A stretch of DNA of 64,000 bases from Candidatus Nomurabacteria bacterium (GCA_020632035.1 JACKGG010000001.1:152985-216984); one strand, 5' to 3'; shown: positions 11,577 through 64,000, counted from the first letter of the stretch. The notes: generated from the letters alone by a model not told the origin. A program made the numbers and translations.

Positions 11577-11580
11577 AATT

Positions 11581-12195
11581 TTATTTATTGATCAAGATAC
11601 TTTGAATATCTAAATCACTAGTCTTAAGGTAATCCACGTTGCTAGATTTTACCACGCCGACTACTCTGCTTAAATTATCGTGCATATTAGTCTTCCAAGA
11701 CTCAAACATGTCCTTTCCTGACTCCATTCTGACATGATCTGGGTTATATCTGTTTTTTAATACTTCAATGTGATCAACATGCACAAGAGCGCTTCCTACC
11801 GGACCCATAGTCAATAATTTTTTTATAGTTTGTTCAGAATGAACATCTGCAGAATATGAGAGAAATCTTTGAACCAGACCTTCGTCTACCACTACATACT
11901 TTTGGGTAGATTTTTTTGCATCATCTATCTTTTTTAGAGATGAAAAAAAGATAGACAGATCATATTTAAAAATTTTCCAATTTTTATTTTTTTGGTAGTT
12001 TTTGAAGATTAATAAAAACCAAGAATAAACCACAAATGGGTATTTTATTGTTAAAGGGAACAATTTGAACTTATTTTGGTCGTGAGGAATAATTTCGAAG
12101 TTGTATTCTTCTTTAAGTTTTTCAGAAAAGGTAGTCTTCCCTACTCCGGGAAGGCCATACAACTCGACGATAACCTTACTTTTTTCTGGCGACAT
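11581..12195 (-). CDS. P-loop NTPase, small-molecule/nucleoside kinase-like
   Basis: Walker A LYGLPGVGKTTFSEKL; ORF track 11581..12219, internal ATG (MSPEKSK) preferred. Confidence 0.4.
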   Translation of the reverse strand: MSPEKSKVIVELYGLPGVGKTTFSEKLKEEYNFEIIPHDQNKFKLFPLTIKYPFVVYSWFLLIFKNYQKNKNWKIFKYDLSIFFSSLKKIDDAKKSTQKYVVVDEGLVQRFLSYSADVHSEQTIKKLLTMGPVGSALVHVDHIEVLKNRYNPDHVRMESGKDMFESWKTNMHDNLSRVVGVVKSSNVDYLKTSDLDIQSILINK

Positions 12196-33146: not shown

Positions 33147-33167
33147 GACCTAGGGTAACCCTAGGTC
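33147..33167. repeat. REP-like palindrome (gacctagggtaaccctaggtc), left flank of Y1 transposase
   Basis: Perfect palindrome; second copy at 33864-33900 and third copy inside murD at 39061-39081. Confidence 0.7.
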
Positions 33168-33849
33168 AGCTTTGGTGACCTTTTAAAATATCGGTATTGT
33201 ATGCTAACCACTCAAACAATTCTTTTTTCATATCTATATGACTAGAAAAATAATCTGGGAATGGAGACGAATCTAAAACGGCTTTTTCTGGTCGATTTAA
33301 TCCTAAATGATCAGGCAAACTTGAATACTGATAAGTCGATACGAATTTATACGCAGTTTCTAAATTCTTTATCCCCCTCTCTACCCAATCTGATTGATAC
33401 AACTTAACAGGATTAAGGTGTATATAGGAATATAAATATTTTAAATATTCATCTTCTCCGGCGTGTTTAGCTTTATAATTTCCTTGGAACAAGGTGCCGG
33501 TACGCTCGTTTCTTTTATTAAAATACATTGAGTAACTTGTACATAATTTATTCATAAAAATACCTAGACCATCATCAGTATGTGGTGTGGCTATAATATG
33601 AAAATGATTAGGCATAAGACAGTATGCGCCGATAGAGACAAGTTGTTCCTTCCTATTAAATTCAAATATATTTTTACCCGACCTAGAAATATTACGATAG
33701 TTTACTGATACTGATGAATTACAAAGATATAAAAGATCAATAAATCTTTTATAATCTGCAGTATCAGTAAAGATAATTCTTCTGTCGGTACCTCTATTAT
33801 AAATATGATAAAACTCGCCAGTTGAAAAACTTATACTCCTGGTTGCCAT
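33166..33849 (-). mobile_element. HUH Y1 tyrosine transposase, IS200/RAYT-like (REP-associated)
   Basis: HuH motif CLMPNHFHIIAT and catalytic Tyr region YSYIHLNP; flanked on both sides by the same palindrome. Confidence 0.6.
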
Positions 33850-35370: not shown

Positions 35371-36225
35371 ATGGTTACCCCTGATGCTTTCTTTTGGCAA
35401 TTGGGTGCAATCCCTCTTCTCATGATAATGGCGGGTAAGCGTAATATCCAATTCGGAATTCGTGAGATCGTGCTCCTAACCGGTATGATTGCCTTGTCCC
35501 ACGAAATATACGGCGTCATCGGATTAGGACTTCGTGCTGCCGGAATACTGCTTGGGGCCACTACCTTTGTTGGAATTCTTTCTGTCGTCTCCTACCTGGT
35601 ATTAGGTTTCATCGTCAACGGTAGTGCCGGCGCAGAAGAGGGTGATGTGGAGAGCCAAGTACTCAAACTTCTCTTACTCGGCATTGTCAGTGTCGCCGCT
35701 TTCTTTGGTGCCTACACCGGCATCTCGATTGATGAACTGTTCGCGGTTCTCGCTCGAGTCGAATGGATGACTAGCCAGGGTTGGAGCTACTGGGTCATGG
35801 CGGCCAATATTACCGTCGCGATGACGATATTGTGGGCGATTCTGCTGATCGAAGGCGTGATTATTTACCTCGTAGTTAAAAAAGCAGAAGATACTATGGC
35901 AATGGACTGGCTTGAGAAGCATGAGGGCTGGGTCATGTTCTTTGTCTTCAGTTTCCTGGCCTACTTCACAACTCGTGGTTGGTACCAGAACTACTATGGC
36001 TACAATCCGGTGGAATGGCACATCATGGGTCACAACACTGGTTTTGCCTACTACGTGTACATAGTCGGTGGATTTCTGCCTATGATCATCCTCCGCCTAC
36101 TACTGCTGGTCAAGCCAGTGCGTATACTCTTGCTCTGGCTCTGCAAGCCACAGCAAAAGATGCTTGATTGGCTTGAAGAATTGAGTCAACGTCGAGCAGA
36201 ACGCAAAATGGCAGCGATGAGCTGA
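35371..36225 (+). CDS. Hypothetical polytopic membrane protein
   Basis: 284 aa, about 8 TM helices; followed by two tandem hairpins (36245-36290, 36303-36333). Confidence 0.45.
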   Translation: MVTPDAFFWQLGAIPLLMIMAGKRNIQFGIREIVLLTGMIALSHEIYGVIGLGLRAAGILLGATTFVGILSVVSYLVLGFIVNGSAGAEEGDVESQVLKLLLLGIVSVAAFFGAYTGISIDELFAVLARVEWMTSQGWSYWVMAANITVAMTILWAILLIEGVIIYLVVKKAEDTMAMDWLEKHEGWVMFFVFSFLAYFTTRGWYQNYYGYNPVEWHIMGHNTGFAYYVYIVGGFLPMIILRLLLLVKPVRILLLWLCKPQQKMLDWLEELSQRRAERKMAAMS

Positions 36226-41167: not shown

Positions 41168-41470
41168 AAGATTTTGACGCATAATTAAAAACCGCCAGAC
41201 TACTTGGGTCCAGCGGTTTTAAAGCTATTCGCGCTCCAGGGTTCGAACTCTACGAGTTCAGTTCAGGTTGTTGCTATTTTGTAAAATCAAAATAGCTGGC
41301 AACCTCCTAAAACTTACTCCCAGAAAGTTTAGCCTAGGATCTTTTAAATTAAATAACGAGCGAAGCAACTATATCGAAGTATGTAAGAATTTTGCTGGAA
41401 AATAATGAGTTCACGAATATATTTTCTGTATGCAGGCTCAGCTCGCGTGGACACAAAAGTCCCGCTGTCT

Positions 41471-41772
41471 GTCCGCGCTCTAGGGTTCGAACCTAGGACC
41501 TTTCGAGTATCAGTCGAATGCTCTACCAACCCTATTGCCTCGTAAACATCGGCAATTCGCTCCGCGACCGGGAAAAATACTATACGTATTTTTCAGCTCG
41601 CGCGTACAAGTAAAAAACATCGTCCGCGCTCTAGGGTTCGAACCTAGGACCTTTCGAGTATCAGTCGAATGCTCTACCAACCCTATTGCCTCGTAAACAT
41701 CGGCAATTCGCTCCGCGACCGGGAAAAATACTATACGTATTTTTCAGCTCGCGCGTACAAGTAAAAAACATC
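41471..41772 (-). repeat. Perfect 2 x 151-bp tandem repeat, each unit = 3' ~60 nt of tRNA-Ile + 90-nt spacer
   Basis: Units 41471-41621 and 41622-41772 are identical by eye; each begins with tRNA-Ile 3' portion (T-arm, anticodon arm, part of D-arm) and diverges at the D-loop. Confidence 0.85.
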
Positions 41773-41773
41773 G

Positions 41774-41846
41774 TCCGCGCTCTAGGGTTCGAACCTAGGA
41801 CCTTTCGAGTATCAGTCGAATGCTCTACCAACTGAGCTAAGCGCGG
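41774..41846 (-). tRNA. tRNA-Ile (anticodon GAU)
   Basis: Minus-strand 73-nt cloverleaf: acceptor CCGCGCT/AGCGCGG, D-arm GCTC-AGTTGGTA-GAGC, anticodon loop CTGATAC, T-arm CTAGG-TTCGAAC-CCTAG, discriminator A; CCA not encoded. Confidence 0.85.
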
Positions 41847-42367: not shown

Positions 42368-42808
42368 ATGAAAAAAACCACTGCTCTAGCCTCGCTTCTT
42401 CTGTTACCAGTAATAACTCATGCTGAATCACTTCAGACTTTTTTCACTAACTTCATACAATTTCTAAGTAACATAGTCATCCCCTTTTTACTTGGAATAG
42501 CCTTTCTTTTCTTCGTAATCAATGCCTTTAGATTCTTTATATATGGTGGTGACAACGAAGAAGATCAGACAAAGGCTAAAACTTTAGCCATCTATAGTAT
42601 TTCAGCCTTTATATTAATCATTACCTTTTGGGGAATAATTAATTTATTAGTCAGTAGCTTAGGTTTTGGTGGAGTAGATCAACCACCATCTGACTACGTG
42701 TGTCCAGATGGTTTATGTCCAGAAAATCAAGAGCCTGATTGGATTCCTCCAATAGACAACCCTTGTAATGACCCGACCAACCCAGCTTGTAATCCGGGCA
42801 GGGCTTAG
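42368..42808 (+). CDS. Secreted two-TM protein, TrbC/VirB2-like T4SS-pilin candidate with Cys/Pro-rich C-terminus
   Basis: Signal peptide MKKTTALASLLLLPVITHA, two hydrophobic helices, C-terminal CPDGLCPENQEPDWIPPIDNPCNDPTNPACNPG; followed by terminator 42820-42856. Confidence 0.3.
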   Translation: MKKTTALASLLLLPVITHAESLQTFFTNFIQFLSNIVIPFLLGIAFLFFVINAFRFFIYGGDNEEDQTKAKTLAIYSISAFILIITFWGIINLLVSSLGFGGVDQPPSDYVCPDGLCPENQEPDWIPPIDNPCNDPTNPACNPGRA

Positions 42809-42856: not shown

Positions 42857-43087
42857 TTAAAACTCTACTTCTGTTCGTAAGGGTTTATTCATAATCATAA
42901 CTCACAGCAGACTTGGAGTGTCACGTACTCTTTTGTCTTATCCTTTAGGCTTGGTCTTTCCCAAGAGTCTAATACCATTTCAGAGAATTGAGTATCATTT
43001 CTCGTTATGTGCTCAATTGAGGCACATAACACCGACCAATTAGTTATCATTGTGCTTTGTTACCAAAACACGACAACGTATCCAATT

Positions 43088-44545
<1,458 letters not shown>

Positions 44546-45229
44546 ACAGGTTTCAAATACCGTAGTATTTTGAATCTGCGTCTTTGAACATAATGCGCGC
44601 ATGTACTTCATGTGCCGCGCGTTCAAAAACAATTTTCCTATAAGGATAAGACAAAAGAATGTATGACCTCGCGGATCGATCTTTTGTCTTGGTTGCTTAC
44701 ATATTCTTGTGGAAAGAATATGTATTATTGCTGTGATGCATGTTCATCATAATCATTAAAATGATTATTTAAAACATACTTCTCAATCACATTATGGGAA
44801 TGTGAAAGAGAGTTATGAAATTGGGCAAACTTAATCACCCAACCCTTACAAACAAATTTTTCCTTAAAATAAAAAATCTTCCGAAGAAAAATTTGTTTGT
44901 AAGAACTGTCAATTTACTCTGTTCCCTCTCGAATATTTACGTCGGAACTTACCCGCACATAAAGCGCCACAAGAGTACTTCCAAATTCATAGTCGTTTTC
45001 ACTCCTTGAATTTTAGGTCGCGCAAAACTGGCACTTTTCAACATCCGATGAACAGTGGCGCTATTATACAGATAAGCAAAAAAAGTGCAAGTACCCTAAC
45101 TGGATATTATTTCTTACAGAACACTAAAACGACATTATCGTCGTCATAAGCACATCTTCTGCTGTCTAAAATCCCGTTTGGGCCCGAAAAATTAAGGGCA
45201 CATAATATATTTAATCACTAAATCTTATC

Positions 45230-45266
45230 GGGCAAAAGAAAAGCCCGCTGTATAAAAATAACGGGC
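45230..45266 (-). terminator. Rho-independent terminator after coiled-coil surface protein gene
   Basis: Minus strand gcccgttatttttatacagcgggc followed by ttttcttttg. Confidence 0.5.
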
Positions 45267-45351
45267 CATCATATCCTCTCAAGATCTTAAGAACAAACTA
45301 AATACGAGAGGAAAATTGTGGCGGTCGAATTGCTCGGCGACCTATTGTGCG

Positions 45352-46629
45352 CTAGGCGGGCAACATTGCCTGCTCTGAACCAATTGTTTCGGACTGACGA
45401 TCTACATCATCCAATACGTTTGATCGTCGGCGCATGAAACGGTTAAGCTTCCATGCTACCCAACATGCAATGAGAATGAGAATGCCGCCTATGAGATATG
45501 TCACATTCACCTCTTCCCAGATCCAACCATAAGACTCCGCCGACGAGGTTTGCACCACTTCGGCCTGAGGTTGAGGTTGATCGAGCTTTTGCAAAGCTTG
45601 CCGTGCAGCCGCGACTTGGCTTTGACGCTGTTGCGTCTCTGCCAACTTTTCGGCCAAACGAGCACTCTCGGCTTCAGCCAAAATCGACTGCACCTCAAGC
45701 AAAATCTCATCCTTAAAGGCTTGACGCACTTCAGGAGAGAATTTGGGTGCCGCCTCAAGGGCAGCAATGGTTGTGTCATACTTCTCGAAACCATTGTCTA
45801 CCTTAGTCTGGAGCTCCGCCCACTTCTCGCCTTGCGCTTGAAGCTGAGCCTGGAAGTTTTTCAGCTGACCGAGTTGCTCGGCCAGCTTGGCGTTGTTCCC
45901 GGCAATTGCTGCCTTGACGGACGCCAAATCCTGGGATTGCTCGAGGATTATTAACTTCATAAACCCTGCTGTGCTGAGCAGTGTTGCCTGCGCAGCAGCA
46001 ACCGAGGCATCACCAGTGGCGTCGACTCCTTTTATAAAGCCTTCCAACTGGTCGAGCTCACCAGCCAGTGTTGCCCTTGCGACAGGATCGTCGCCCGCTG
46101 CTTCCGCTGCTTCGCGGATACTGGTAATACCGCGATCCGCTGAATTAAGCTGTTCAACAGCGCCCCCGACTGCTTTGGCCTTGTCAGCCGCGACTTCGGA
46201 AGATACTGCCAGCGCCGGCGACGTATTCTCCGCTGGTGCAATCGGTACCGGAAGAAGCCATTTGGTCGCGATAAACTCCTCTTTAGTTATAGTCAGTCGG
46301 AGTTCACCGTTTTCATCGAGCAAAGTCGGTGTCTCTCCCATAAATTGGGTTTCGACAAACTGTAGCATATACTTTTCCACTTCTTCAACCGACGCTGTCT
46401 GACTTAAATATCCGTTGTCCTTTGCCAGAGCGACGACCATATGACTGATTCCGTAAAAGGTCAAATTGCCATCACTGTCAATAAACCCTTCCTTTGTCTC
46501 CATGTAGGCAAACACTTCCGCTGGATCATTCCAAGTGGGTTCACCCGCGGGGTTGCCAGCTTGGGAATTGACAGTTGTCAAAAGCAACAGAACTGCCACC
46601 AGTGTACATGTGATACTTTTCATTTTCAT
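45352..46629 (-). CDS. Secreted Ala/Gln/Glu-rich coiled-coil protein with C-terminal TM anchor
   Basis: Signal peptide MKMKSITCTLVAVLLLLTTVNSQA; long alpha-helical heptad-like A/Q/E/L region; C-terminal TM LIGGILILIACWVAW + basic tail; GC-rich codon usage. Confidence 0.5.
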   Translation of the reverse strand: MKMKSITCTLVAVLLLLTTVNSQAGNPAGEPTWNDPAEVFAYMETKEGFIDSDGNLTFYGISHMVVALAKDNGYLSQTASVEEVEKYMLQFVETQFMGETPTLLDENGELRLTITKEEFIATKWLLPVPIAPAENTSPALAVSSEVAADKAKAVGGAVEQLNSADRGITSIREAAEAAGDDPVARATLAGELDQLEGFIKGVDATGDASVAAAQATLLSTAGFMKLIILEQSQDLASVKAAIAGNNAKLAEQLGQLKNFQAQLQAQGEKWAELQTKVDNGFEKYDTTIAALEAAPKFSPEVRQAFKDEILLEVQSILAEAESARLAEKLAETQQRQSQVAAARQALQKLDQPQPQAEVVQTSSAESYGWIWEEVNVTYLIGGILILIACWVAWKLNRFMRRRSNVLDDVDRQSETIGSEQAMLPA

Positions 46630-46707
46630 TGTACTCTCCTAATCTGATGTGGGTTTAAGTGGTTTACCGACGACAGCATAGCTGTCGTCGGTTCACCTCC
46701 GGCGACT

Positions 46708-47310
46708 CTAGTGCGGAACCGAGTTCGCTTCGATTGTGGATTCAGTCGCGACGTTTGTCACGATATGAGAAAAAACCGAAGTCCCTTGTCCACCACCGCA
46801 GTTTTTACACCGCGACAGGTAACCGTTACCAATCGGAGCGATCAGTCTGGTGAACTGGTCGATCAAAAAGCGAGCATCGCCAGCTTGATCCTGAGACTGG
46901 CCCACATAGGCTCTTTCTCCAATCACCATACCAACCTTATCAGTTGGCCTGATGACAACAGCGTTACTATTGAAGCCCATAAGGCCACCGTCGTGTTCCC
47001 ACCATACTGCAACTGACTGAATCGCTGGATTCCATTTGGCGCAGGTTTGGTTGGTCCAGCAAACCGCCTCTCCGGTGAGATAGACCATATAGTTCCAGGT
47101 ATTCACTGCCAAAACTTTCTTGATATGTTCTTCCTTTGCCGTCGCTTGATCAGCTGCTTTCTTGGCGTTGAACTCCTCGAAGTCCGCTTCGGTCAATTTG
47201 ACCTGTCTTGCCGGAGTTGAAGGAGAGGTTATTGAACACCCCGCCAAGATGGCGCAGGTGCAGATGAGCACGGCCAGAAGCCGCGATATTGAAGTTTTCA
47301 TGGTTTTCAC
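46708..47310 (-). CDS. Lipoprotein, hypothetical (200 aa)
   Basis: Lipobox-type signal MKTMKTSISRLLAVLICTCAILAGC; CKNCGGGQG motif; GC-rich. Confidence 0.45.
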   Translation of the reverse strand: MKTMKTSISRLLAVLICTCAILAGCSITSPSTPARQVKLTEADFEEFNAKKAADQATAKEEHIKKVLAVNTWNYMVYLTGEAVCWTNQTCAKWNPAIQSVAVWWEHDGGLMGFNSNAVVIRPTDKVGMVIGERAYVGQSQDQAGDARFLIDQFTRLIAPIGNGYLSRCKNCGGGQGTSVFSHIVTNVATESTIEANSVPH

Positions 47311-47316
47311 CCCTAG

Positions 47317-48054
47317 CTAGTTGAGTTTGACGTTGGTTGGTATGGTCCAGGAATTACTCTTTCCTTTCCCAAGAATATAATCATCGGCGTTGCCGCCGAT
47401 CGTTAATCCGAGCTTTGACTGTCCGTCACAATTACAACAACCGGGAACCCCGGCAATACGCAACGGCTTATTTTTTAACATCTCTTCTGACGAAGTCACC
47501 TGAGTATCCTCGGGTGGTTCGTCTAGAACTAGCACAGGCAGCGGAGGTTCTTTCGGTACTGGTAATACCGGTGTATGAACCGACCAGTTGCTACATGTAT
47601 CCAGGAACAGTACCGCCAATCCATCCTTGTTTCCAGTCGGGCAAGACCAACTTGCCCGCGCTGGGTCATCAGGAAGAATGTCAGTACCGAAATCGATGTA
47701 AAGGTTGGCCGCTTTGTGCGGTTGCCCTGGGCAAGACTGAGTGGTTGTTATCCTCTCACCCTCCTGAACAAAGTGACGAGTACACTGACCCGCTATTTTG
47801 CTGTAAACCCCTATCATCCATTCTGCAAAAGATAGGTTTGGCAGGCGGATTTTTTCTCTTTCCGCCATGATCAGCGGATAAGCTCCCTCGGAGGTCCCTT
47901 TGTATGGGCAAACTCCGACCTTTTTATAAGGTCGAAACTCATCTCCTTTTGGAGCATTATCGTCACCCGTCTCGGCCGAAGCAGAGACCGACAACAACAA
48001 CGCCACAGCTGTTGCCAAAAACAACTTCTGCGCTTTCGCGCTTGCTTTTTTCAT
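47317..48054 (-). CDS. Secreted Cys-containing hypothetical protein (245 aa)
   Basis: Signal peptide MKKASAKAQKLFLATAVALLLSVSASA; GVPGCCNCDGQS motif; GC-rich. Confidence 0.45.
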   Translation of the reverse strand: MKKASAKAQKLFLATAVALLLSVSASAETGDDNAPKGDEFRPYKKVGVCPYKGTSEGAYPLIMAEREKIRLPNLSFAEWMIGVYSKIAGQCTRHFVQEGERITTTQSCPGQPHKAANLYIDFGTDILPDDPARASWSCPTGNKDGLAVLFLDTCSNWSVHTPVLPVPKEPPLPVLVLDEPPEDTQVTSSEEMLKNKPLRIAGVPGCCNCDGQSKLGLTIGGNADDYILGKGKSNSWTIPTNVKLN

Positions 48055-48203
48055 GTTTACTTACCTCTCGTATTTAACTATCAAAATTCCAAGAACCCCT
48101 TACCAGTACACTTTTTATAAAGTGTCAAGGTATAGTCCATAAAAGGATTTATATCATACTTTTGTAAAAAAATCAACCCCGTCATGTTATGAAGATGAAT
48201 ATA

Positions 48204-48242
48204 AAAAACTCCGCGTACCCTTGATGAAGACGGGTAGCGGAG
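48204..48242 (-). terminator. Rho-independent terminator after secreted protein gene 48342..
   Basis: Minus strand ctccgctacccgtcttcatcaagggtacgcggag followed by tttttt. Confidence 0.6.
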
Positions 48243-48341
48243 CTGTATGGGCTCTGCCGCGAAGCAGAGCGATGAACTTAATGTGACAGTCTGACCACAA
48301 CGGCCTGAACTGTCACACGACCTTGGTTACCTGGCGATAGG

Positions 48342-48935
48342 TTAGTGCGACCCACTTCCCTTTTTGCCGCCAAAAGTGGTGACGAAGCCACCACCTTTTA
48401 TACCGGACCAAACACCGGTATTGCCATCCACCCAGAAAGTTTCTCCGGGTTTGAGATGGGCATCGGTTGTCAGAGACTCGATGCCGATGGCATGAGTCTC
48501 AGACCCCATCATCGATAACGATTTGACGTTATCTCCACAGCCCAGGCAACCTTCAGCCTGGTCTTTGGTGACCGTGAAGTCGCCAACCATCTGGCTCACA
48601 CTCTCGTCGAGAGTATAAGCATTGATGAGCGTATCATGGCTGGAAGTCAAATCCCCCCAGCTGCGACCCGAGCCATCGAGTTCCAGCTTCATTGCTCCGG
48701 CAATAGTGTCACCCAAGCTCGGGTGGCGGTCGGGATGATGCGGATTCTCGGGCGGTTGGTGACCACCACAATTTCCATTCTTGCATGGCGACTCGTACCA
48801 GTCATTTGGCGACTGGTTAGGACTGAGCACCAGACTATCCATGACCAGGTTGTCACCACCAGCGAATGCCGGCGGTGACAACCAGGCGGACAGTGCGAGT
48901 GTGATTGCGATTGTTCCGGCTATTTTGCAAATGCG
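48342..48935 (-). CDS. Secreted hypothetical protein
   Basis: ORF track 48342..49037; internal start MRICKIAGTIAITLALSAWLSPPAFA gives a signal peptide; PCKNGNCGGHQ and GCLGCGDN motifs; GC-rich. Confidence 0.4.
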   Translation of the reverse strand, partial: RICKIAGTIAITLALSAWLSPPAFAGGDNLVMDSLVLSPNQSPNDWYESPCKNGNCGGHQPPENPHHPDRHPSLGDTIAGAMKLELDGSGRSWGDLTSSHDTLINAYTLDESVSQMVGDFTVTKDQAEGCLGCGDNVKSLSMMGSETHAIGIESLTTDAHLKPGETFWVDGNTGVWSGIKGGGFVTTFGGKKGSGSH

Positions 48936-49316
48936 CATGCTTTTCTCCATCCTCACGTAGTGAGGTAAAAAGTTGGTATTGCTGCGACGTGCAGCGGCTT
49001 TTGTATCCCAAGAGCGAGATAACGATCTTTGTCTCAAGACGAGACAGATCGTGGATTGGGGACATTTTGATTGAGCCGAAGCTCATCTTTTGTCCCCTCT
49101 CCCGGGCCGGCACGTCTTAAGTAAAGACTTGAGTAAACTAGCACAATATAGAAATTTGTCAACAGCTAAATGTTTACACTTGCCCTTTCTTGCGGGGAAC
49201 TTTATTTAACTCAAAACACCCGAAAGTTCCTTGAAACAAGTTCGCCCAACAAGATTTAAAACTATTTAAACTTATTAGAAATAAAGCTATTTGCAGGTCT
49301 GTCTGATTGCAGTACA

Positions 49317-50021
49317 ATGCACAACAATATGCAAAAACAAGAAACCATTGTCATGTCGGTCGGAGGCTCATTGATTGTTCCCGATCAGATTGATACCGAC
49401 TTTCTGCGAACGTTGAAGAATTTTATAGATGGAGAGACGGCTAATGGCCGTCGTTTTATTATTATTGCTGGCGGGGGTAAGACAGCCCGTCGCTACCAAG
49501 ATGCAGCTGCTGACGTAACAGAACTAACTAGTGACGACCTTGACTGGATGGGCATCCATGCAACCAGGCTAAATGGCCACCTACTTCGGACTATCTTCCG
49601 AGATGTAGCTCACCCAGAGATGATTACCAATCCCGATGATATCCTAGACGTACCAAAAGAAGCCAAAGTTGTGATCGCCTCAGGCTACCGACCCGGCTGC
49701 TCAACTGACTTACGAGCCATCCAGATCGCCGAGCGAGTGGGAGCTAAAAAAATAATCAATCTATCTAATATTGATTATGTTTACACAGCAGACCCTCGGA
49801 CCAACCCTGAGGCTAAGATAATAGAAGATATTTCTTGGGCCGATTTTCGAGCTCTAATACCAAGCGAGTGGGACCCAGGACTCTCTTCCCCATTTGACCC
49901 GATTGCCGCTAAAGAAGCGGATGAAAAAAATATCGAAGTAGCGATAATTAATGGCGACAAACCAGAGGCTCTAGCTAGCTACCTACGTGACGAAGAATTT
50001 GTCGGGACCAAGATTTCTTAA
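49317..50021 (+). CDS. Amino-acid-kinase-family protein, UMP kinase (archaeal-type PyrH)-like
   Basis: VMSVGGSLIV... FIIIAGGGKTARRY; 234 aa; followed by terminator 50047-50076. Confidence 0.5.
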   Translation: MHNNMQKQETIVMSVGGSLIVPDQIDTDFLRTLKNFIDGETANGRRFIIIAGGGKTARRYQDAAADVTELTSDDLDWMGIHATRLNGHLLRTIFRDVAHPEMITNPDDILDVPKEAKVVIASGYRPGCSTDLRAIQIAERVGAKKIINLSNIDYVYTADPRTNPEAKIIEDISWADFRALIPSEWDPGLSSPFDPIAAKEADEKNIEVAIINGDKPEALASYLRDEEFVGTKIS

Positions 50022-50046
50022 AAAATAATTTGTTGATAAGAAAACT

Positions 50047-50076
50047 AAATGTGAGCCATAGGGCTCACATTTTTTA
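50047..50076. terminator. Bidirectional rho-independent terminator
   Basis: aatgtgagcc-atag-ggctcacatttttt between convergent genes. Confidence 0.65.
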
Positions 50077-50079
50077 AAC

Positions 50080-50478
50080 TTAAGTTTGATTGTCTGGCTG
50101 TTTATGCGGTGGTTGGGGCACTGAGACTTCCTGCTTCACTTCCATGTATGGACTTTCTCCATACTCGTTAGAATTTATGTCTCCCTTACGTATTAGTAGA
50201 CCAAGGAAAAGTGCTAAGTTCAAAAGAGGAATAAACATCATTAACATCCACAAGCCCGAACAATCTAAGTCGTGTAGACGGCGTACACCAATAGATAAAC
50301 TTGGTAATAAAATAGCCAACTGATATACCCACACGACTGATTCTTGTCCTACCGAAGCAACAGAAATAACAATCGCGACAATAATACTAATCAAAGTAAA
50401 CATGCCATATTGCCGACGTGTCGCTCTACCGTTAAAATCAGCGTAGTGTTGCGTAACGGGATCCAAAAACCAGTGCAT
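50080..50478 (-). CDS. DUF805-family inner membrane protein
   Basis: HYADFNGRATRRQYGMFTLISIIVAIV... typical DUF805 N-terminus, 3-4 TM helices. Confidence 0.55.
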   Translation of the reverse strand: MHWFLDPVTQHYADFNGRATRRQYGMFTLISIIVAIVISVASVGQESVVWVYQLAILLPSLSIGVRRLHDLDCSGLWMLMMFIPLLNLALFLGLLIRKGDINSNEYGESPYMEVKQEVSVPQPPHKQPDNQT

Positions 50479-50555
50479 AACAAAAATTAACTAATTGATT
50501 CAATCATAACATATGGTATTGATTCACAGCTATGAACTGGTCCAATACAACTGTT

Positions 50556-51284
50556 TTATTTGAGATTCTTAAAAACTTCTTGTTGAGATGAGTGAAACTT
50601 CTCAGCCGCCTCTTTGCAGTACGGGTTATATTTATACACGTCTTCAAAAAGTTTTTGGTCGTTTTTAACACTTTCAACTGCGTCCATCAGGAATTGAAAA
50701 GAAAGTGTGTCTAGTTCTGTCCGATCGAAGCCGGCTTTCATGATTGACTGCCCAATGTAGTGTGTAACAAAAAGAGTTTCAGCTAGGTTTTTGTCGTGCT
50801 CATCAGCGGTCATTTCTATAATATTGAATCCAAAGATAGAAAATTTATCTTTTAACATTTGGTAATCGTCGTTTTTGAGAGTGTAGTCGGTAACAACAAT
50901 TCTGAACCCTTCTACATTGCCTTTGTGCTTCTGGTAGCTGGTTGGGCCAAACATAGGATGAGTAGAAATAAACCGCCGGCCATCACAATATTTGTGACAT
51001 AGATCACTAGTATGCTTCTTTACCGTTGCTACGTCGATGAAGACAGTGTGTGGGAGGGCGTGCTCCAAAACCGCTTTCATTCTTTCTTCATATTCACGAA
51101 TACCAGCACAAAGAAAAACTACGTCAGATTGGGCGGCGGTCTTTAAATCAAAAAATTTTTCGTTGTCTGGTGCACACCGACGTGAGTGGATGCGGTACTC
51201 CAAACCAGGGAAAAACCGCTGCCCTAGCTCGTGGACAAAAGTCCCAAAGTTTCCATACCCAATTATTCCGATAGTGTTAATCAT
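50556..51284 (-). CDS. Prephenate/arogenate dehydrogenase-family protein (TyrA-like, short)
   Basis: Rossmann IGIIGYGNFGTFV; VFIDVATVKK resembling TyrA D-x-x-S/T-V-K motif. Confidence 0.4.
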   Translation of the reverse strand: MINTIGIIGYGNFGTFVHELGQRFFPGLEYRIHSRRCAPDNEKFFDLKTAAQSDVVFLCAGIREYEERMKAVLEHALPHTVFIDVATVKKHTSDLCHKYCDGRRFISTHPMFGPTSYQKHKGNVEGFRIVVTDYTLKNDDYQMLKDKFSIFGFNIIEMTADEHDKNLAETLFVTHYIGQSIMKAGFDRTELDTLSFQFLMDAVESVKNDQKLFEDVYKYNPYCKEAAEKFHSSQQEVFKNLK

Positions 51285-51834
51285 TATTTATAGTTTGCAA
51301 AAATTTATCTACTTCTTTCTTAAGTTCACCCATAGTACCATTATTCAAAATAGTGTAGTCAGCCATACTAATTACTTTGGCTTTTTGCATACCATTTGGG
51401 TCCGGATCGTTCATCTCAAGAGCTTCCTGAGCAATAAATTCTTCAAAAGAAACTTGGTCTGAACCTGATCTCCTGCCTTTAATACGTTTGTATCGAACCT
51501 TCTTATCAGCATCTACCGCCAAGAGAATACCCCCGTTTGCCTTTAGTGTATCTACTTCAGCTGTAGCACGAATTGACTCGATTATAGCCTTTTTGGTTGC
51601 ATCTTTAGACTTTTTTTTCAAAAAAAAGACAACAAGAAAATCATTGCCGTGGGTGGCCCTCAGTTCGTTTGCCACCAGTCTCATGTTAGCCCTATTATTA
51701 TCCATCCCTCTTTTTCGAAATTCTTCCTCCCAAATTGACCGTGCAGAATAATGCACAAAACCACCATGTTCAACCAAATATGAGACAACAGCACCCTTTC
51801 CAGCCCCATCTGTACCTGTGATACCTATTAGCAT
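51277..51834 (-). CDS. P-loop nucleotide/nucleoside kinase-like protein (dephospho-CoA kinase/adenylate kinase-like)
   Basis: MLIGITGTDGAGKGAVVSYL Walker A at N-terminus, 185 aa. Confidence 0.4.
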   Translation of the reverse strand: MLIGITGTDGAGKGAVVSYLVEHGGFVHYSARSIWEEEFRKRGMDNNRANMRLVANELRATHGNDFLVVFFLKKKSKDATKKAIIESIRATAEVDTLKANGGILLAVDADKKVRYKRIKGRRSGSDQVSFEEFIAQEALEMNDPDPNGMQKAKVISMADYTILNNGTMGELKKEVDKFLQTINND

Positions 51835-51842
51835 AGAAAGTA

Positions 51843-52814
51843 TTATACTTTCATTTTAGTAGCTTTCCATTTTGCGTAAGTGACCACCAGTGGACTAGCA
51901 ATACAAATAGAAGAATAGGTTCCAGCTAGAACTCCAGCAAACAGTACTAAAGCAAAGGTTTGAGTAACTGCACCACCAAGGAAATACAGGGCTAGCAAAG
52001 TAACCATAGTGGTAACTGAAGTATTAATAGAGCGAGCAAGTGTTTCTTGTACCGCTGAGCCAACGATTTCTTCATATGGCTTAGTGAGAGTATAAGTTAC
52101 CTCTTCTCTCACCATCCCAGCTTCTGTGTGCTTCTTGCGGTGTTCAGTACGGTTTTGTTTTAGGTTTTCTCGCACGCGATCGAAAACTACGATAGTGTCG
52201 TTAACCGAGTAACCAAGTACAGCCAAGAGAGCCATCACAAACAGCACATCAACTTCAAGCCCGAGGAAGTAGCCCAGTAAACTCATGGTAGCGGTTGGTA
52301 CCAACACATCGTGAATCAAAACCAAAATTGTTATCCCGCCGTAAGTCCAAGAACTGACAGGAGTACCGATGCCGGCAAAGGCAAAAGCGACGTACAAAAC
52401 AATAATAGATACTACACCGAAGATAGCCCAGCCGGCTTTATCTTTAAGTTCTTGTCCGATAACTGGACCGATGGATGTAAACCGAATTACTTCACCTCCT
52501 TCACCTAACTTAGTAACGTTTTCTTCTAAAGTTACTCTTTCACTTTCAGTTAAATCACGAGTTCGGATCAAGTAGGCATTTCGCCCTGCCTCATCGACAG
52601 ATTCACGGACAGAAAAATTACCAGTCATCTGTTCAGTTACCACTTTATCAACTTCTTCTTTAGAAGGAGCATTTACATACGCCACCTCTGTTAAAGATCC
52701 TCCACTGAAATCAATCCCCTCTTTTAAACCTAGAGTAGAAATAATAAACACACTCGACACCGCAATAACCGCAGCTATGATGAGAAGTATTTTTCTGTAA
52801 GTGATTGCAAACAT
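51843..52814 (-). CDS. secF: Protein translocase subunit SecF
   Basis: GIDFSGGSL motif, 6 TM, follows secD; ORF track 51843..52862, internal ATG (MFAITYRK) preferred. Confidence 0.8.
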   Translation of the reverse strand: MFAITYRKILLIIAAVIAVSSVFIISTLGLKEGIDFSGGSLTEVAYVNAPSKEEVDKVVTEQMTGNFSVRESVDEAGRNAYLIRTRDLTESERVTLEENVTKLGEGGEVIRFTSIGPVIGQELKDKAGWAIFGVVSIIVLYVAFAFAGIGTPVSSWTYGGITILVLIHDVLVPTATMSLLGYFLGLEVDVLFVMALLAVLGYSVNDTIVVFDRVRENLKQNRTEHRKKHTEAGMVREEVTYTLTKPYEEIVGSAVQETLARSINTSVTTMVTLLALYFLGGAVTQTFALVLFAGVLAGTYSSICIASPLVVTYAKWKATKMKV

Positions 52815-52827
52815 ATTAAAAGTGAAA

Positions 52828-54306
52828 CTATTCTTGTTTTGAGCGATTAAAATTAAGTCCACTTCCTAACAACTTAGACATGAGTCCATTGCTGGATTTG
52901 TTTACATCTGGCAAAGCAATCAAAAATGTCCGAGTTATTACTAGTGCTGAAAACATTGAAGCGATGATTCCAATTCCAAAAACTAGAGCAAACCCTTTTA
53001 CCATTGAAGTTCCAAACCAGAATAAAATAATCGCGGACAGAAGACTGGTTATGTTACCGTCTCTGATAGCACTCCAAGCTCGAGAAAAACCTACCTCGGC
53101 CGACTTCCGACTACCTGCTCCAGACCGGAACTCTTCTTTCATTCTTTCAAAAACTAGCACGTTGGCGTCTACTGCCATACCGAGAGAAAGAATAAACCCG
53201 GCGAGACCAGCAGCGGTTAAAGTGACCGGAATGAACAGGAATAGCGACAACATGATAGTTATATATGAGAGTAGGGCAACGCCTGCGATCAACCCTGGCA
53301 GTCGGTACCACAAAACCATAAACAACATCACTAGACTTAAACCTAGGAATCCAGCTTTGATACCGTGGTCTAGTACTTCAAAGCCAAGTGATGCACCGAT
53401 TGTTTGGGTGCTTTGTAGCTCGATCGGTAAAGGTAACGCCCCAAAACTTAAGTTCTTGTACAGTGAGCGAGCCTCTTCTAAATCAAAGTTACCAGAAATT
53501 ACGGCTGTCCCACCAGTGATCGGTTCATTAATAACAGGAGAAGAAAGTAATTCTCCGTCGAGGAATATTCCCAATTGTTCTCCTACATGGGCCTTAGTGA
53601 TTTCGCCAAACAAATCTGCTCCTTCTGGGGTAAAGGTTACAGTAACCATAGGTTCGTTTGAAAGTCGGCCACTATTTGCCCCAGCAAATTCTAGATTGGC
53701 AGTTTGTAGATAACGACCGGTTAAGCCAGTGTCTACAAAAGGCAGTTCATCTTCTCCGATAGTAACTTCTTCCCCATTTATTTTTACATTACCAATCACT
53801 ACTTCTGATGAACTGGAAGATTTGGTCAATGAATTTAGGCTCTCTAGAGCTGATTGTTGATCAGCCAGTTCTTGACTGAACAATTTAAATTCTAGAAGTG
53901 GAGTACGGCCAATCTCTGCCACAGCTTCGCTAACATCGGTTACGCCGGGAAGCTCTACTACCAGACGCTCAGTTGGATTGTCAGTTACAAAACTACTATG
54001 TTCTACTTGGACGATCGGTTCTGATACTCCAAAAACATTGACCCGACGCTCAATAACATCACGTAAAACGTTCATGAGTTCTGGGATTTCAGACTGATCC
54101 ACTCCCTTGGTGTCAGCCACATAGACTAAGTGAGAACCACCGGCCAAATCTAGCCCGAGCTTGAAAGGCTTAGTAGCCTCTGGAGATATACTATTTTGGT
54201 AAATCGAATTACCTAACCAAGCAATTAGAACAACTACAACGATAACTCTAAACCAACGTAAAAAAGCTTGAGACTGGTCGGACTGTTGTGACTCGAGTTT
54301 AGACAT
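52828..54306 (-). CDS. secD: Protein translocase subunit SecD
   Basis: GLDLAGGSHLVY motif, periplasmic domain + C-terminal 6-TM RND-like bundle, followed by secF. Confidence 0.85.
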   Translation of the reverse strand: MSKLESQQSDQSQAFLRWFRVIVVVVLIAWLGNSIYQNSISPEATKPFKLGLDLAGGSHLVYVADTKGVDQSEIPELMNVLRDVIERRVNVFGVSEPIVQVEHSSFVTDNPTERLVVELPGVTDVSEAVAEIGRTPLLEFKLFSQELADQQSALESLNSLTKSSSSSEVVIGNVKINGEEVTIGEDELPFVDTGLTGRYLQTANLEFAGANSGRLSNEPMVTVTFTPEGADLFGEITKAHVGEQLGIFLDGELLSSPVINEPITGGTAVISGNFDLEEARSLYKNLSFGALPLPIELQSTQTIGASLGFEVLDHGIKAGFLGLSLVMLFMVLWYRLPGLIAGVALLSYITIMLSLFLFIPVTLTAAGLAGFILSLGMAVDANVLVFERMKEEFRSGAGSRKSAEVGFSRAWSAIRDGNITSLLSAIILFWFGTSMVKGFALVFGIGIIASMFSALVITRTFLIALPDVNKSSNGLMSKLLGSGLNFNRSKQE

Positions 54307-54448
54307 ATGATTTAGGTGAAACTATGGCATCATTTATACCATACTGGAACCTATATTACACTCCACACAACACGTTTATGTTTTATACTTTTAGCCTATT
54401 CTAGCCAAAATATAATTATTTTGTAAGGTTTAAAACAAATTTGTAGTT

Positions 54449-55240
54449 TTACTGGCGGACCAGTAGCACTAAATTCTTTAATAAATAAGCAATGGTGATC
54501 GGACCGATACCGCCAGGAACAGGCGTCAAAAGCTTTGCTTTTGACGCCACTTGAGGAGCCACATCTCCAACCAAGACCCCCCCATCTTCTGAAGTCCCAG
54601 CATCAAAAATAATGACCCCGTCTTTGACCGAGTCAGCTTCAATAAAGTGCGGCTGACCGATACCAGTAATTATAATATCAGCTAACTTTAACACATCTGT
54701 TGAATAGGTTTCTTTGGTTAAAACCTTTACTACTCCACCCTTTTTTTGTGCGTAGTGAGCGGCTGGCATCCCGACCAATCTGCCCTCACCCATAACCACA
54801 ACTGACTTACCTTGCCACTCAATATTATGAAGCTTACTTATTTCATCAATGGCCCCAACTACAGGCGACAAACACGCATCGCTAATTTGGCCGTACTTAA
54901 ATCCATCTGGGTCTTTTCCAGACGGAATTCCTGCCAAGACTTTATCTCGATCGATTTGCACAGGCAGTGGTAACTGAACAATTATTCCGTCAGAGTCTCC
55001 TATCACTTGTTTGATGCAATTCAGAACTTCCTCAGTTGAAATATCAGCTGGTAATTCAATAATATTGAGACCAACTCCAACCGAAGAAGCTTTCTTCTTC
55101 TTCATATCTAAGTATTTTTGAGTCTCGAAATTTGGTGCACAAGTAATAATAGAAAGCCTAAGCGGGCGCCCAATTGAAGAAACATCCTCGGCCACTTGTT
55201 TCAACACTCCTGCAGCAATAGTTTTTCCGTCAACTAACAT
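54449..55240 (-). CDS. folD: Bifunctional methylenetetrahydrofolate dehydrogenase/cyclohydrolase
   Basis: LVDGKTIAAGVLKQVAEDV, YLDMKKKKA, GKSVVVMGEGRLVGMPAA, PVPGGIGPITIAYLL motifs. Confidence 0.75.
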   Translation of the reverse strand: MLVDGKTIAAGVLKQVAEDVSSIGRPLRLSIITCAPNFETQKYLDMKKKKASSVGVGLNIIELPADISTEEVLNCIKQVIGDSDGIIVQLPLPVQIDRDKVLAGIPSGKDPDGFKYGQISDACLSPVVGAIDEISKLHNIEWQGKSVVVMGEGRLVGMPAAHYAQKKGGVVKVLTKETYSTDVLKLADIIITGIGQPHFIEADSVKDGVIIFDAGTSEDGGVLVGDVAPQVASKAKLLTPVPGGIGPITIAYLLKNLVLLVRQ

Positions 55241-55282
55241 GGTTCCGGCAGTATAACAAAGTTTTTTGGGTAGAGTTATGTT

Positions 55283-56176
55283 TTATAAAAGTTCGGCGAT
55301 CCCTGCTTCAAGTGAAATCTCTGGTTCCCACTCTAGTTGTTCAATTGTTTTAGAAATATCAGCTAGTGTGTGGCGAGGTTCGTGTCTCGGCGCTACGTAC
55401 TCAATCTCTCCCCCAATCATTTTGGCAAGATTATTGACACTAGTCTGTTTACCACTACCGATATTGAACACTTCACCATGCCCGACATTTGGATTGACTG
55501 AAGATTTAAATATAGCATTAACAACATCATGTACGTGGATAAAATCTCTAGTCTGTTCACCGTCTCCAGTTATTGTTAGTGGTTCGCCACTTTCTTTCAA
55601 ATTTAAAAATCGTCCGATTACTAAAGCGTAGGGTCCATTAGGATCAAAATATGGACCATAAACATTGAAGAACCTGAGCGAAACAGTCTCTACGTTATAT
55701 AAATTACTCCAAAGTTTCATTAAGCCTTCTCCCATAAATTTTTGTAGGGCGTAAGGACTTTTGGGGTCAACTGGCAGATCAGTCGATAATGGTAAAGTTT
55801 CTTGATCACCGTAGGCTGCGCTCGAGGCAGCAAAAACTACTCTTTTGACTCCAGCGGTTTTTGCTGCCTCGAGTACTGATAGTGTTCCGTTCACATTCAC
55901 ATCATGTGATTCTGTCGGACAATCTATTGAATATTGTACCTTTGGCAAAGCCGCTAAATGAACAATTACGTCAACTCCTTCGGTTGCTTTTTCAAGTAAA
56001 TGCTGGTCTCTCACATCGATTTTGTGAAAAATGACTTCTTTAGGTAATCTGATTTGGTCTCCGGCACTTAGGTCGTCTACCACCACCACCTCTTGACCAC
56101 ACTCTACCAAAAAATTGGTGAGGTTAGTTCCAATGAACCCGGCTCCTCCAGTAATTAGAAATTTCTTTATTATCAT
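55283..56176 (-). CDS. NAD-dependent nucleotide-sugar epimerase (GalE/WbpP-like SDR)
   Basis: ITGGAGFIGTNL Rossmann motif; YALQKFMGE (YxxxK). Confidence 0.65.
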   Translation of the reverse strand: MIIKKFLITGGAGFIGTNLTNFLVECGQEVVVVDDLSAGDQIRLPKEVIFHKIDVRDQHLLEKATEGVDVIVHLAALPKVQYSIDCPTESHDVNVNGTLSVLEAAKTAGVKRVVFAASSAAYGDQETLPLSTDLPVDPKSPYALQKFMGEGLMKLWSNLYNVETVSLRFFNVYGPYFDPNGPYALVIGRFLNLKESGEPLTITGDGEQTRDFIHVHDVVNAIFKSSVNPNVGHGEVFNIGSGKQTSVNNLAKMIGGEIEYVAPRHEPRHTLADISKTIEQLEWEPEISLEAGIAELL

Positions 56177-61714: not shown

Positions 61715-62386
61715 CTATATCTCAAAATCTTCTTTTGCGCCTGAATTTTCAACAAACTCCTGGTATTCTTCAAAAGACCCAAAAGTGCTAGTAATAACCT
61801 CCCCTACTAACAATTTTTTCCATCTGTTGCTGAGATAATCTTGGTAACTAGACCACGGATAAGAAATTGTATTATTTTTCCACCGTCTCAGTTCATTAGG
61901 ATTGCGATGTATATACGCTGACAGATAGGTCAATTGTTCATCACTTTCCACTAACTTTACTTTATAAGCACCTTGAAACACATGTCCTGACTTCTCATAC
62001 CGCTTATTGAAATATTGGGAATAGGCGTTGCTTAGTTTATGCATATACCTAGACAAGCCATCATCACTTAAAGTCCTCACTGTTAAATGAAAGTGGTTTG
62101 GCATTATGCAAAAATTTATTATCTCGACAAACCTCTCACTTACAATATTATCTAGATCTTTATTTTTAACCAAAAAGTCCTCTTTCTTTAGGTAATTTTT
62201 AACAAAACGATTTGTTTGAGGTAGGGAAACGGGAGACTGCATATGCATAGCAAGGAATAGAAAACGAACATAATCAGAACGGTCATAAAAAAGCGTCTGC
62301 TTTAAATTTCCTCTATTGTATACGTGGTAATAATTATCCTCAATAATTTTCAAAGATCTCATATCAACAGCATACCAGTATAGCAA
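61715..62386 (-). mobile_element. HUH Y1 tyrosine transposase, IS200/RAYT-like (paralog of 33166-33849)
   Basis: HuH motif CIMPNHFHLTVRT, Tyr region SAYIHRNP; YYHVYNRGN N-terminus like the other copy; flanked by identical 23-bp palindromes. Confidence 0.6.
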
Positions 62387-63121: not shown

Positions 63122-63233
63122 AAGTTGGCGCCTACCTACTCTTCCCCTTGCGGAGTACCATCGGTGGTAGAAGACTTTACTGCCGTGTTCGGAATGAGAA
63201 CGGGTGTACCCCTTCCCCCAAAGCACCAACTTG
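63122..63233 (-). rRNA. rrf: 5S ribosomal RNA
   Basis: Minus strand AAGTTGGTGC...CACCCGTTCTCATTCCGAACACGGCAG...GATGGTACTCC...GAGTAGGTAGGCGCCAACTT; helix I pairing of ends; matches bacterial 5S consensus (CCGAACACGG, GATGGTA). Confidence 0.8.

Positions 63234-63789: not shown

Positions 63790-64000
<211 letters not shown>

Follow-up and report, generated by a model that had tools for sequence, protein, structure and literature searches.

A four-gene segment beside the 16S rRNA gene of a Nomurabacteria bacterium as a candidate allele of a replacement-type envelope-protein locus

Most Patescibacteria (candidate phyla radiation, CPR) are thought to live attached to other microbes, and for the class Paceibacteria we know of neither hosts nor attachment molecules. 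In fimbrial or pilus-type operons of other bacteria, such as the chaperone-usher operons pap and fim, a stem-loop separates the gene for the major subunit from the accessory or anchoring genes downstream. Another type of envelope locus, the replacement flexible genomic island, is known from aquatic prokaryotes (Lopez-Perez et al. 2014, PMC4033161), with a related case in the cell-wall island of Haloquadratum walsbyi (PMC4535781). Here, we describe a segment of a 64,000-nucleotide (nt) stretch of DNA from Candidatus Nomurabacteria bacterium (GCA_020632035.1 JACKGG010000001.1:152985-216984; hereafter the window), which lies between the putative promoter of the 16S rRNA gene and a pyrH-like kinase gene and contains four genes, named A, B, C, and D. 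With moderate confidence, we interpret this segment as the organism's own version of a hypervariable, replacement-type locus for envelope proteins, the alleles of which are exchanged among lineages. An initial annotation had marked the same region as an island rich in guanine and cytosine (GC), either acquired horizontally or shaped by codon selection on highly expressed surface proteins.

Four open reading frames (ORFs) on the minus strand fill the segment (Table 1). All encode proteins with signal peptides, one of them with a lipobox, in agreement with the initial annotation. Gene A forms a separate transcription unit and encodes a small, secreted protein rich in glycine, serine, and threonine, with two Cys-x(2-4)-Cys loops; its signal peptide, as read from the sequence, ends in MRICKIAGTIAITLALSAWLSPPAFA ahead of GG. 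The secreted product of gene B, with a signal peptide ending in LLLSVSASA ahead of ETG, consists of a cysteine-containing domain of about 120 amino acids (aa), a proline-rich linker, and a short C-terminal cysteine motif (CCNC). Gene C encodes a protein with a CxxC-type loop (CKNCGGG) and a lipobox (CAILAG, followed by CSITS) that fits the pattern [LVI][ASTVI][GAS]C. The lipobox cysteine is invariant in 10 of 10 positional counterparts and the glycine before it nearly so; by its signal peptide and lipobox, C is a predicted bacterial lipoprotein. Gene D is the coiled-coil protein rich in alanine, glutamine, and glutamate, with a C-terminal membrane anchor, that had been noticed earlier. Behind its signal peptide, a conserved N-terminal domain (about 110 aa) leads into a coiled-coil stalk rich in alanine, glutamine, glutamate, and leucine (14.6% Ala, 9.2% Glu, 7.1% Gln, and 10.4% Leu for D), and the stalk is followed by one C-terminal transmembrane helix. 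The hydrophobic stretch (VTYLIGGILILIACWVAWKL) is followed by NRFMRRR, and the cytoplasmic tail is short (37 aa). The four products are thus predicted to be extracytoplasmic or membrane-anchored, which fits the earlier description as a surface-protein island. The many antisense ORFs reported for the segment are present as well.

None of the four proteins carries a prepilin motif (G/FTLIELLVV; GFTLIE) or a class III signal, and their signal peptides are of the ordinary Sec type. A reading of the cassette as a type IV pilus or pilin cluster was rejected because the motif is absent from A–D; it was found in separate neighboring genes of four related loci (L005, L007, L008, and L019; L numbers denote loci of relatives). 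Paralogy among the four genes was likewise rejected, as they gave no significant pairwise match. For B, AlphaFold2 without an alignment returned a low-confidence model (predicted local distance difference test, pLDDT, 34), and with an alignment of 14 sequences, residues ~40–160 reached a pLDDT of 91–97. This modeled domain has no fold relative in PDB or BFVD.

Relatives of the locus were collected through the adjacent pyrH-like kinase, which gave 54 loci from genomes (one per species) and 80 from metagenomes; the metagenome scan returned no conspecific contig, and its best match was 88% identical. A minus-strand 16S gene lies upstream of pyrH in 35 loci, the window included, and the length of the gap between them varies. 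It is 520–600 base pairs (bp) in more distant relatives (L021, L023, L024, L025, and L093), 1.1–2.5 kb where it holds just a UPF0259-type membrane protein (U) and/or an IspA-type protein, and 4–9.5 kb in the remaining loci. In at least 13 related species of Paceibacteria, the A-B-C-D module occupies the site between the 16S promoter and pyrH in the same order and orientation (L004, L005, L006, L007/L063, L008, L010, L011, L014, L018, L061, L062, L140, and L141, of which L140 and L141 were found through database homologs of B and C). From the pyrH side, the minus-strand genes of the gap are U, a Cys-x(2-4)-Cys secreted protein, a B-like protein, a lipoprotein, and a D-like protein, and some loci additionally contain a pilin-like gene. 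The B-like proteins of relatives are secreted, about 230–300 aa long, and share the proline-rich linker and C-terminal cysteine motif. The D-like proteins (about 420–520 aa) have a signal peptide, coiled coil, and transmembrane helix; most have an extra cytoplasmic domain of about 120 aa, which in the alignment is absent from D of the window and of L004. In nearly all relatives, U (in some with the IspA-type gene) sits between the cassette and pyrH; in the window, neither gene is present at 49038–49316, nor did tblastn find either elsewhere in it.

On a host tree inferred from pyrH, SecD, and SecF, a broad, paraphyletic set of lineages has the module, which is absent from one derived subclade and the outgroup. 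Because the more distant relatives have only the 520–600-bp gap and a single subclade has lost the module, this points to a module that is ancestral to the ingroup. Every detectable homolog whose genomic context was checked sits at this same locus. From these comparisons, the four-gene module appears to be lineage-specific to one clade of Paceibacteria and to keep one and the same site between the 16S promoter and pyrH.

The initial annotation had proposed a synteny comparison to see whether the island is strain-specific. A recent, one-off acquisition from outside the lineage would account for the atypical composition described below, which makes the segment the top tetranucleotide outlier, and for the lack of any described family among A–D. 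However, the site, order, and orientation are shared by the 13 or more species above, the homologs with a checked context all lie at this locus, and the promoters and leader of the cassette are common to relatives. In addition, A–D have no match to an integrase, transposase, or other mobility protein in Pfam, NCBIfam, or PHROGs, and no repeat pair bracketing 45096–49266 was found. The sole tRNA gene (tRNA-Ile) lies beyond the 16S gene, so that no tRNA adjoins the segment. We therefore consider such an acquisition very improbable. Two IS200-like Y1 transposase homologs (PF01797; GC 0.32 and 0.34) occur in the window, at least 11 kb from the segment.

The borders of the segment are sharp. In a blastn comparison with the sister species L004 (16S 98% and pyrH 89% identical), the alignment extends through the 16S gene and its leader to position 45095 (88–93% identity) and resumes at position 49267, from where pyrH with its upstream region matches at 79%; nothing aligns in between. 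The 16S promoter region (45039–45095) is 88–91% identical to those of L004 and L006, and the putative promoter marks what we take as the conserved left border of the variable segment. As the window derives from a metagenome-assembled genome, and rRNA neighborhoods are prone to misassembly, a chimera of two organisms, arising in assembly or binning, was considered. The independently assembled contig L001 is 99.96% identical over 45045–56000, and two further samples carry the same genes (conspecific contigs L001–L003, at least 99.9% identical), so the segment is not an assembly chimera by this evidence: both the sequence and the pyrH junction agree among independent assemblies of three other samples. 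On the 16S side, the junction is as in relatives, with the conserved rRNA promoter region running directly into the segment. A chimera has, in our view, a negligible probability.

Within these borders, the proteins have diverged almost beyond recognition. Cassette proteins are 20–48% identical in every pair of species, whatever the relatedness of the hosts. The checks of the four proteins proposed in the initial annotation gave a divided outcome, with no match to a curated family and detectable homology to the positional counterparts in relatives. This homology was clearest for D (hhalign probability 95.9, E 5.8e-9, residues 3–131), followed by C (probability 84.5, E 6.9e-6; nearest relatives P0014 of L141, at 33% identity by phmmer and 32% by blastp, P0017, and P0019). 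A is linked to its counterparts by an hhalign probability of 45.8 (E 2e-4), by a phmmer match to L010 (E 4e-5), and by 30% identity over 76 aa to A of L061 (E 4e-6); cysteine motifs shared with the counterparts are visible as well. B of the window alone found nothing among relatives' B proteins with BLAST or hhalign (probability 1.8), while a profile of B and 13 database homologs matched the relatives' B family with a probability of 97.3 (E 2.4e-11, 199 columns). Comparisons across the different families of the module were all insignificant in hhalign. The links are weak but specific, and suggest that each gene of the window is homologous to its positional counterpart. One D-type protein, P0009, is encoded on the metagenome contig L059, where two genes for 390-aa proteins on opposite strands, of which it is one, flank a LAGLIDADG endonuclease gene.

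Outside these relatives, the four proteins are rare. In a word-indexed search of 5.8 billion proteins, B matched only its own 90% cluster, members of which (e.g., MCB9815132.1) are annotated as "Candidatus Nomurabacteria bacterium"; with family alignments as input, the same kind of search gave at least 4 matches to D and 3 to C. An exhaustive HMMER search of 1.84 billion representatives with A, B, C, and the N-terminal domain of D yielded 20 proteins, namely the four themselves, 13 relatives of B, and 3 of C; A matched itself only. None of the four matched Pfam, NCBIfam, PHROG, or PADLOC families above cutoff or at a meaningful E-value, the Pfam hits of D being coiled-coil noise, and B and C found nothing among PDB sequence profiles. 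A phage or defense origin was considered and rejected, since PHROGs, PADLOC, and BFVD gave no meaningful match. A literature search found no description of this four-gene module.

The GC-rich character of the region was borne out by the sliding-window, codon-usage, and tetranucleotide analyses that the initial annotation had proposed. In 300-nt windows, GC content steps from 0.43 to 0.51–0.58 near 45350, stays at 0.46–0.58 until about 49100, and then drops to 0.39; the window as a whole has a GC content of about 0.41. Genes A–D (45352–48938) each have a GC content of 0.49–0.55 and a GC content at third codon positions (GC3) of 0.48–0.58, against 0.409 and 0.365 for the 51 background genes of the window. 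Pooled over the cassette, GC3 is 0.530, compared with 0.369 ± 0.038 in 13 flanking genes (z = 4.2), and the tetranucleotide deviation is 0.328 against a median of 0.169, the largest of all 3.8-kb windows. The spacer between A and B (47900–48350) forms a dip of 0.40–0.42. To trace the source of the excess, the A–D proteins were back-translated with background codon usage, which predicts a GC content of 0.45–0.47 and a GC3 of 0.36–0.375, where 0.50–0.55 and 0.48–0.58 are observed. Because back-translation covers only part of the observed GC, about half of the excess stems from amino acid content and about half from synonymous sites. The proteins are richer in Ala, Gly, Thr, Cys, and Trp than the background, and poorer in Phe, Tyr, Ile, and Arg.

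At synonymous sites, both G and C are raised. At fourfold sites, G rises from 0.15 in the background to 0.26 in the cassette and C from 0.20 to 0.26; G-ending codons rise from 0.35 to 0.55 in two-fold purine families, and C-ending codons from 0.36 to 0.46 in two-fold pyrimidine families. GCG, CCG, and TCG codons are up about 2.2- to 3.4-fold. This looks like a mutational-type signature, of a balance richer in GC than that of the present host genome. Selection for translationally favored codons in surface-protein genes with very high expression, the second proposal of the initial annotation, would agree with the rise of C-ending codons in the pyrimidine families, and with the near-consensus promoter and strong terminator of gene A, as abundant structural genes often have. 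However, the larger rise of G-ending and NCG codons is not a tRNA-supply pattern, and the same genes show no excess or even a deficit in several relatives (L005, L018, L062, and L140). This explanation is not supported and probably wrong; we consider it improbable.

Two other parts of the window deviate in composition. The gene with the largest GC3 excess among the background genes (GC 0.49, GC3 0.57) encodes a 284-aa multi-pass membrane protein without a Pfam match. A block of low GC content (0.34–0.38), with genes that by their N-terminal sequences resemble those for sugar-nucleotide enzymes and glycosyltransferases, may be a classical low-GC polysaccharide island.

Conservation in all relatives with the same composition, which the initial annotation had named as an outcome that would refute its reading, was found in part only: the module occurs in many relatives, and its composition differs among them. 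Across 12 loci, cassette GC3 (0.34–0.69) and flank GC3 (0.32–0.59) are uncorrelated (Pearson r = −0.03). The cassette exceeds its flanks by 0.30 in L011, 0.29 in L014, 0.16 in the window, 0.13 in L063, and 0.12 in L004; the difference is about 0 in L005 and L018, and negative in L062 (−0.05) and L140 (−0.11). The U gene, where checked, has a composition near that of the flanks. A second line of evidence comes from the B proteins, which fall into two types linked by profile comparison only. A B1 profile made from database sequences alone scores B of the window, L062, L140, and L141 at 117–152 bits. B of L004 scores 18 bits with this profile and 190 bits with the B2 profile, the type found in this sister species and most others. 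On the host tree, L063 (B2) is sister to L140 (B1), and the distribution of types conflicts with the tree. The best matches of the individual proteins are scattered as well: B in L140 (39% identity), C in L141 (32%), D in L004 (28%), and A in L061 (30%). The best matches of B and C lie in hosts whose 16S is 93% identical, whereas L004, with 98%, gives no match for B and one of just 27 bits (E 0.7) for C. The uncoupling of GC3 and the incongruence of B types and best matches support, at the level of sequence comparison, an exchange of alleles within a conserved locus.

The same data can be read as vertical inheritance and evolution in place, in which a local force, either GC-biased gene conversion at a recombination hot spot or selection on mRNA structure or stability, maintains the GC excess. 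The ancestral module and its fixed position agree with this. Synonymous sites are saturated (flank DNA about 70% identical), so the GC3 excess (z ≥ 2.5 in 7 of 12 lineages) must have been imported recently or be continuously maintained. The joint rise of G- and C-ending codons is what gene conversion bias predicts. Furthermore, the window and the same-population contig L001 differ at four nucleotides, all of them (45171, 45325, 45453, and 47559) within or just beside the cassette and none in 6.7 kb of aligned housekeeping flank, roughly p = 0.02 under uniform chance by our estimate. On the other hand, L005 and L018 show no excess and L062 and L140 a deficit; the excess ranges from 0 to +0.30 with no relation to host GC, the B types are at odds with the host tree, and the spacers within the cassette remain at 0.40–0.42. 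We regard evolution in place as rather unlikely, though as the most probable of the alternatives.

Several observations weigh against the exchange of alleles that we favor. The species compared are old, with flank DNA only 65–79% identical between hosts, so low cassette identity by itself is no proof of transfer, and fast vertical divergence of secreted proteins could explain much of it. Cassette GC3 exceeds flank GC3 in 8 of 12 loci, and just 2 loci show a clear deficit, which leaves room for a locus-specific force that raises GC. The B1/B2 pattern could reflect an ancient polymorphism or differential loss of paralogs. Neither a donor nor a near-identical allele turned up elsewhere, the closest cassette proteins sharing 28–39% identity; the genomes compared gave no sign of a recent transfer or of a breakpoint between close relatives; and the same-species contigs L001–L003 contained no alternative cassette. 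As for function, a fold model was obtained for B alone, and the surface complex proposed below draws on signal peptides, lipobox, membrane anchor, and operon layout only.

In contrast to the coding sequences, the regulatory DNA of the segment is conserved. The putative promoter of B-C-D (29 nt, TTGATTTTTTTACAAAAGTATGATATAAA) is near consensus, occurs as a single copy in the window at up to 3 mismatches, and was absent from shuffled sequences. It recurs once per locus in 11 loci with at most 5 substitutions (24–29 of 29 positions), always between A and B, where the surrounding coding sequence cannot be aligned between species. The motif of the gene A promoter (TTGACA...TGcTAG(A/T)TT) is also present upstream of the leader in L010, L005, L006, L140, and L062. 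Gene A has GC-rich hairpins downstream (two or three, the last bearing a T-run) in 10 of 10 loci examined. The initial annotation had assigned a terminator to each gene; this holds for A, whose last hairpin ends in U6, and for D, with its terminator-like hairpin and U-rich run. The hairpin between C and D has no U-tract, and the gap between B and C (6–15 nt), a short spacing kept in relatives, has no terminator.

The leader of gene A is 130–200 nt long in relatives. Each folded alone, all 11 leaders share one arrangement (z −3.5 to −7.9), in which a conserved 5' element and a long, variable hairpin precede a conserved hairpin (CUGUCUCAC GUUC GUGAGGCAG), followed by another variable hairpin and a last one. 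In each of the 11 copies, the Shine-Dalgarno sequence is paired within this last hairpin. With 9 relatives as input, a covariance model independently recovers the leader of L004 (44 bits, E 7e-9); the copy of the window scores 8.5 bits (E 0.13), and is similar to the others by eye. Counts over only 10 sequences, aligned by fitting to the model, give 94.6% paired cells, 4 compensatory pairs, and a covariation score of 0.28 against 0.16 in shuffles (0 of 500 reach it). No Rfam family matched the leader. MAFFT with RNAalifold misaligned whole leaders with their variable loops and gave no consensus for the ribosome-binding-site hairpin. We regard the leader as a candidate new cis-regulatory RNA, of which the window would hold a divergent version, and treat its conservation as a lead rather than a result.

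These features suggest how the locus may work. Gene A would be expressed from its own promoter, through a leader that pairs its Shine-Dalgarno sequence, up to a strong terminator, and a second promoter would drive B-C-D, with B co-translated with C. The four products probably assemble as a membrane-tethered surface complex, with C and D as anchors, A as the abundant subunit, and B as its partner. Exposure at the surface to a host cell, phages, or other cells would place them under diversifying selection, and whole alleles or single genes may be replaced among related lineages by homologous recombination, anchored in the rRNA promoter and leader, the pyrH side, and the conserved internal promoter. 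A bolder proposal, which we put forward as speculative and unlikely in its entirety, is that A–D form an undescribed, clade-specific surface apparatus with at least one new fold, in which swappable alleles set the specificity for partner, host, or phage and a new type of riboswitch-like leader RNA controls the major subunit gene by hiding its ribosome-binding site.

A fixed, easily located locus beside the 16S gene that encodes four exposed, fast-diverging, and exchangeable proteins offers a concrete candidate for what determines specificity. Its physical linkage to 16S allows cassette types to be assigned to taxa in metagenomes. Across a dozen related genomes, local composition is uncoupled from that of the genome, and this offers a means to tell imported alleles apart from biased gene conversion. 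Two more leads are the conserved leader RNA and the confidently modeled B domain, which has no structural relative. If A–D are ordinary envelope components, the finding is that of a well-documented variable locus only.

Table 1. Features of the segment, its relatives, and the rest of the window. Positions refer to the window unless a locus is named; MFE, minimum free energy.
Feature	Position	Strand	Description
Variable segment	45096-49266	minus	No blastn similarity to L004, both flanks align
16S rRNA gene	43085-44544	minus	5' end at 44544, ~800 nt downstream of D stop
Putative 16S rRNA promoter	45063-45090	minus	TTGCAC ... TGTATAAT, read from sequence
Terminator-like hairpin 3' of D	45234-45267	minus	GGCCCG...CGGGC and U-rich run, read from sequence
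Gene D	45352-46629	minus	425 aa
C-D hairpin	46661-46697	minus	Inverted repeat, perfect 12 bp; MFE -27.5, z -3.7
Gene C	46708-47301	minus	197 aa, lipoprotein by lipobox
Gene B	47317-48054	minus	245 aa, secreted
Putative B-C-D promoter	48148-48176	minus	TTGATT, 17-nt spacer, TGaTATAAA
Gene A terminator	48201-48318	minus	Three GC-rich hairpins; MFE -55.9, z -5.6 (direct folding)
Gene A	48342-48938	minus	198 aa; alternative start at 48950 gives 202 aa
Gene A leader	48939-49133	minus	Four hairpins, last pairs Shine-Dalgarno sequence
Putative gene A promoter	49135-49162	minus	TTGACA, 16-nt spacer, TGcTAGTTT, read from sequence
Leader, L004	8683-8787		
Leader, L005	5442-5546		
Leader, L010	8671-8756		
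Leader, L140	6574-6672		
16S gene, L006	611-2204		Broken by insertion
16S gene, L010	476-4069		Broken by insertion
16S gene, L012	2186-4542		Broken by insertion
16S gene, L140	10890-13354		Broken by insertion
Genes for 390-aa proteins, L059	313-1485, 4985-6157	opposite	Flank LAGLIDADG endonuclease gene
Low-GC block	~4000-13000		
TrwB/VirD4-like coupling ATPase gene	25242-27425	minus	
IS200-like Y1 transposase homologs	33166-33849, 61715-62386	minus	PF01797
Second GC-rich gene	35371-36225	plus	284 aa
tRNA-3'-like fragment	41225-41248		
tRNA-Ile 3' repeats	41471-41832		60 nt, three copies
tRNA-Ile gene	41773-41846		Intact
Inverted repeat around 16S	42920-42945, 44642-44667		26 nt
Type IV secretion pilin-like gene	42368-42808	plus	PF18895
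5S rRNA gene	63123-63230		
23S rRNA gene, 3' end	63800-64000		

The surroundings of the 16S gene have features of their own. In several relatives (Table 1), the 16S gene is broken by insertions of about 0.1–2 kb, which in L140 encode a LAGLIDADG endonuclease. In the window, a 26-nt inverted repeat that resembles a processing stem brackets the 16S gene, and the rRNA genes are unlinked: 16S and tRNA-Ile lie about 18.6 kb from the 5S gene and the 3' end of the 23S gene, with about 16 protein genes between these and 16S. The 3' part of tRNA-Ile is repeated with 151-nt spacing and 100% identity, one copy being in the intact tRNA and two, truncated, downstream of it; a further fragment resembling a tRNA 3' end is found nearby. 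These repeats could represent a tandem duplication, remnants of attachment (att)-like sites, or an assembly effect. The pilin-like gene of the type IV secretion family beside 16S is kept there in relatives, and a gene for a TrwB/VirD4-like coupling ATPase lies 15 kb from it.

Compared with known systems, the segment shares its atypical GC and tetranucleotide composition and its secreted proteins with integrative or pathogenicity islands. Unlike these, it has no integrase, transposase, direct repeats, or tRNA insertion, and its site is occupied in at least 13 relatives and empty only in more distant ones and one subclade. The leader of gene A is like translational riboregulators that hide the ribosome-binding site, such as riboswitch platforms and RNA thermometers, in its conservation across species, its multi-hairpin fold ending in Shine-Dalgarno pairing, and some covariation. 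It differs from them in having no Rfam match and no assigned ligand or signal, in a window copy too divergent for the model, and in a Shine-Dalgarno hairpin that the consensus fold did not recover. Fimbrial and pilus operons resemble the module in having a small, probably abundant secreted subunit gene (here A) with a strong promoter, hairpins, and a terminator, followed by genes for a lipoprotein and a membrane-anchored protein. However, A–D have no similarity in sequence or fold to pilins, ushers, chaperones, or sortases and no prepilin motif, and B-C-D has its own promoter.

The replacement flexible islands differ from the module in three respects. They vary between strains of one species, whereas the module varies between species; their cargo consists of glycosyltransferase, O-antigen, or pilin genes rather than of four small secreted or anchored proteins; and classical replacement islands are typically GC-poorer than the genome, whereas the module is usually GC-richer. 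The likeness is nonetheless extensive. Both occupy a fixed position between conserved core genes, with an equivalent role and layout of genes whose sequences are very divergent or unrecognizable, and both show a sharp loss of similarity at the flanks, atypical composition, products of the envelope or surface, and, for the module more tentatively, signs of recombination rather than of site-specific integration. On balance, the evidence agrees better with a variable locus of the replacement type than with a single insertion of foreign DNA.

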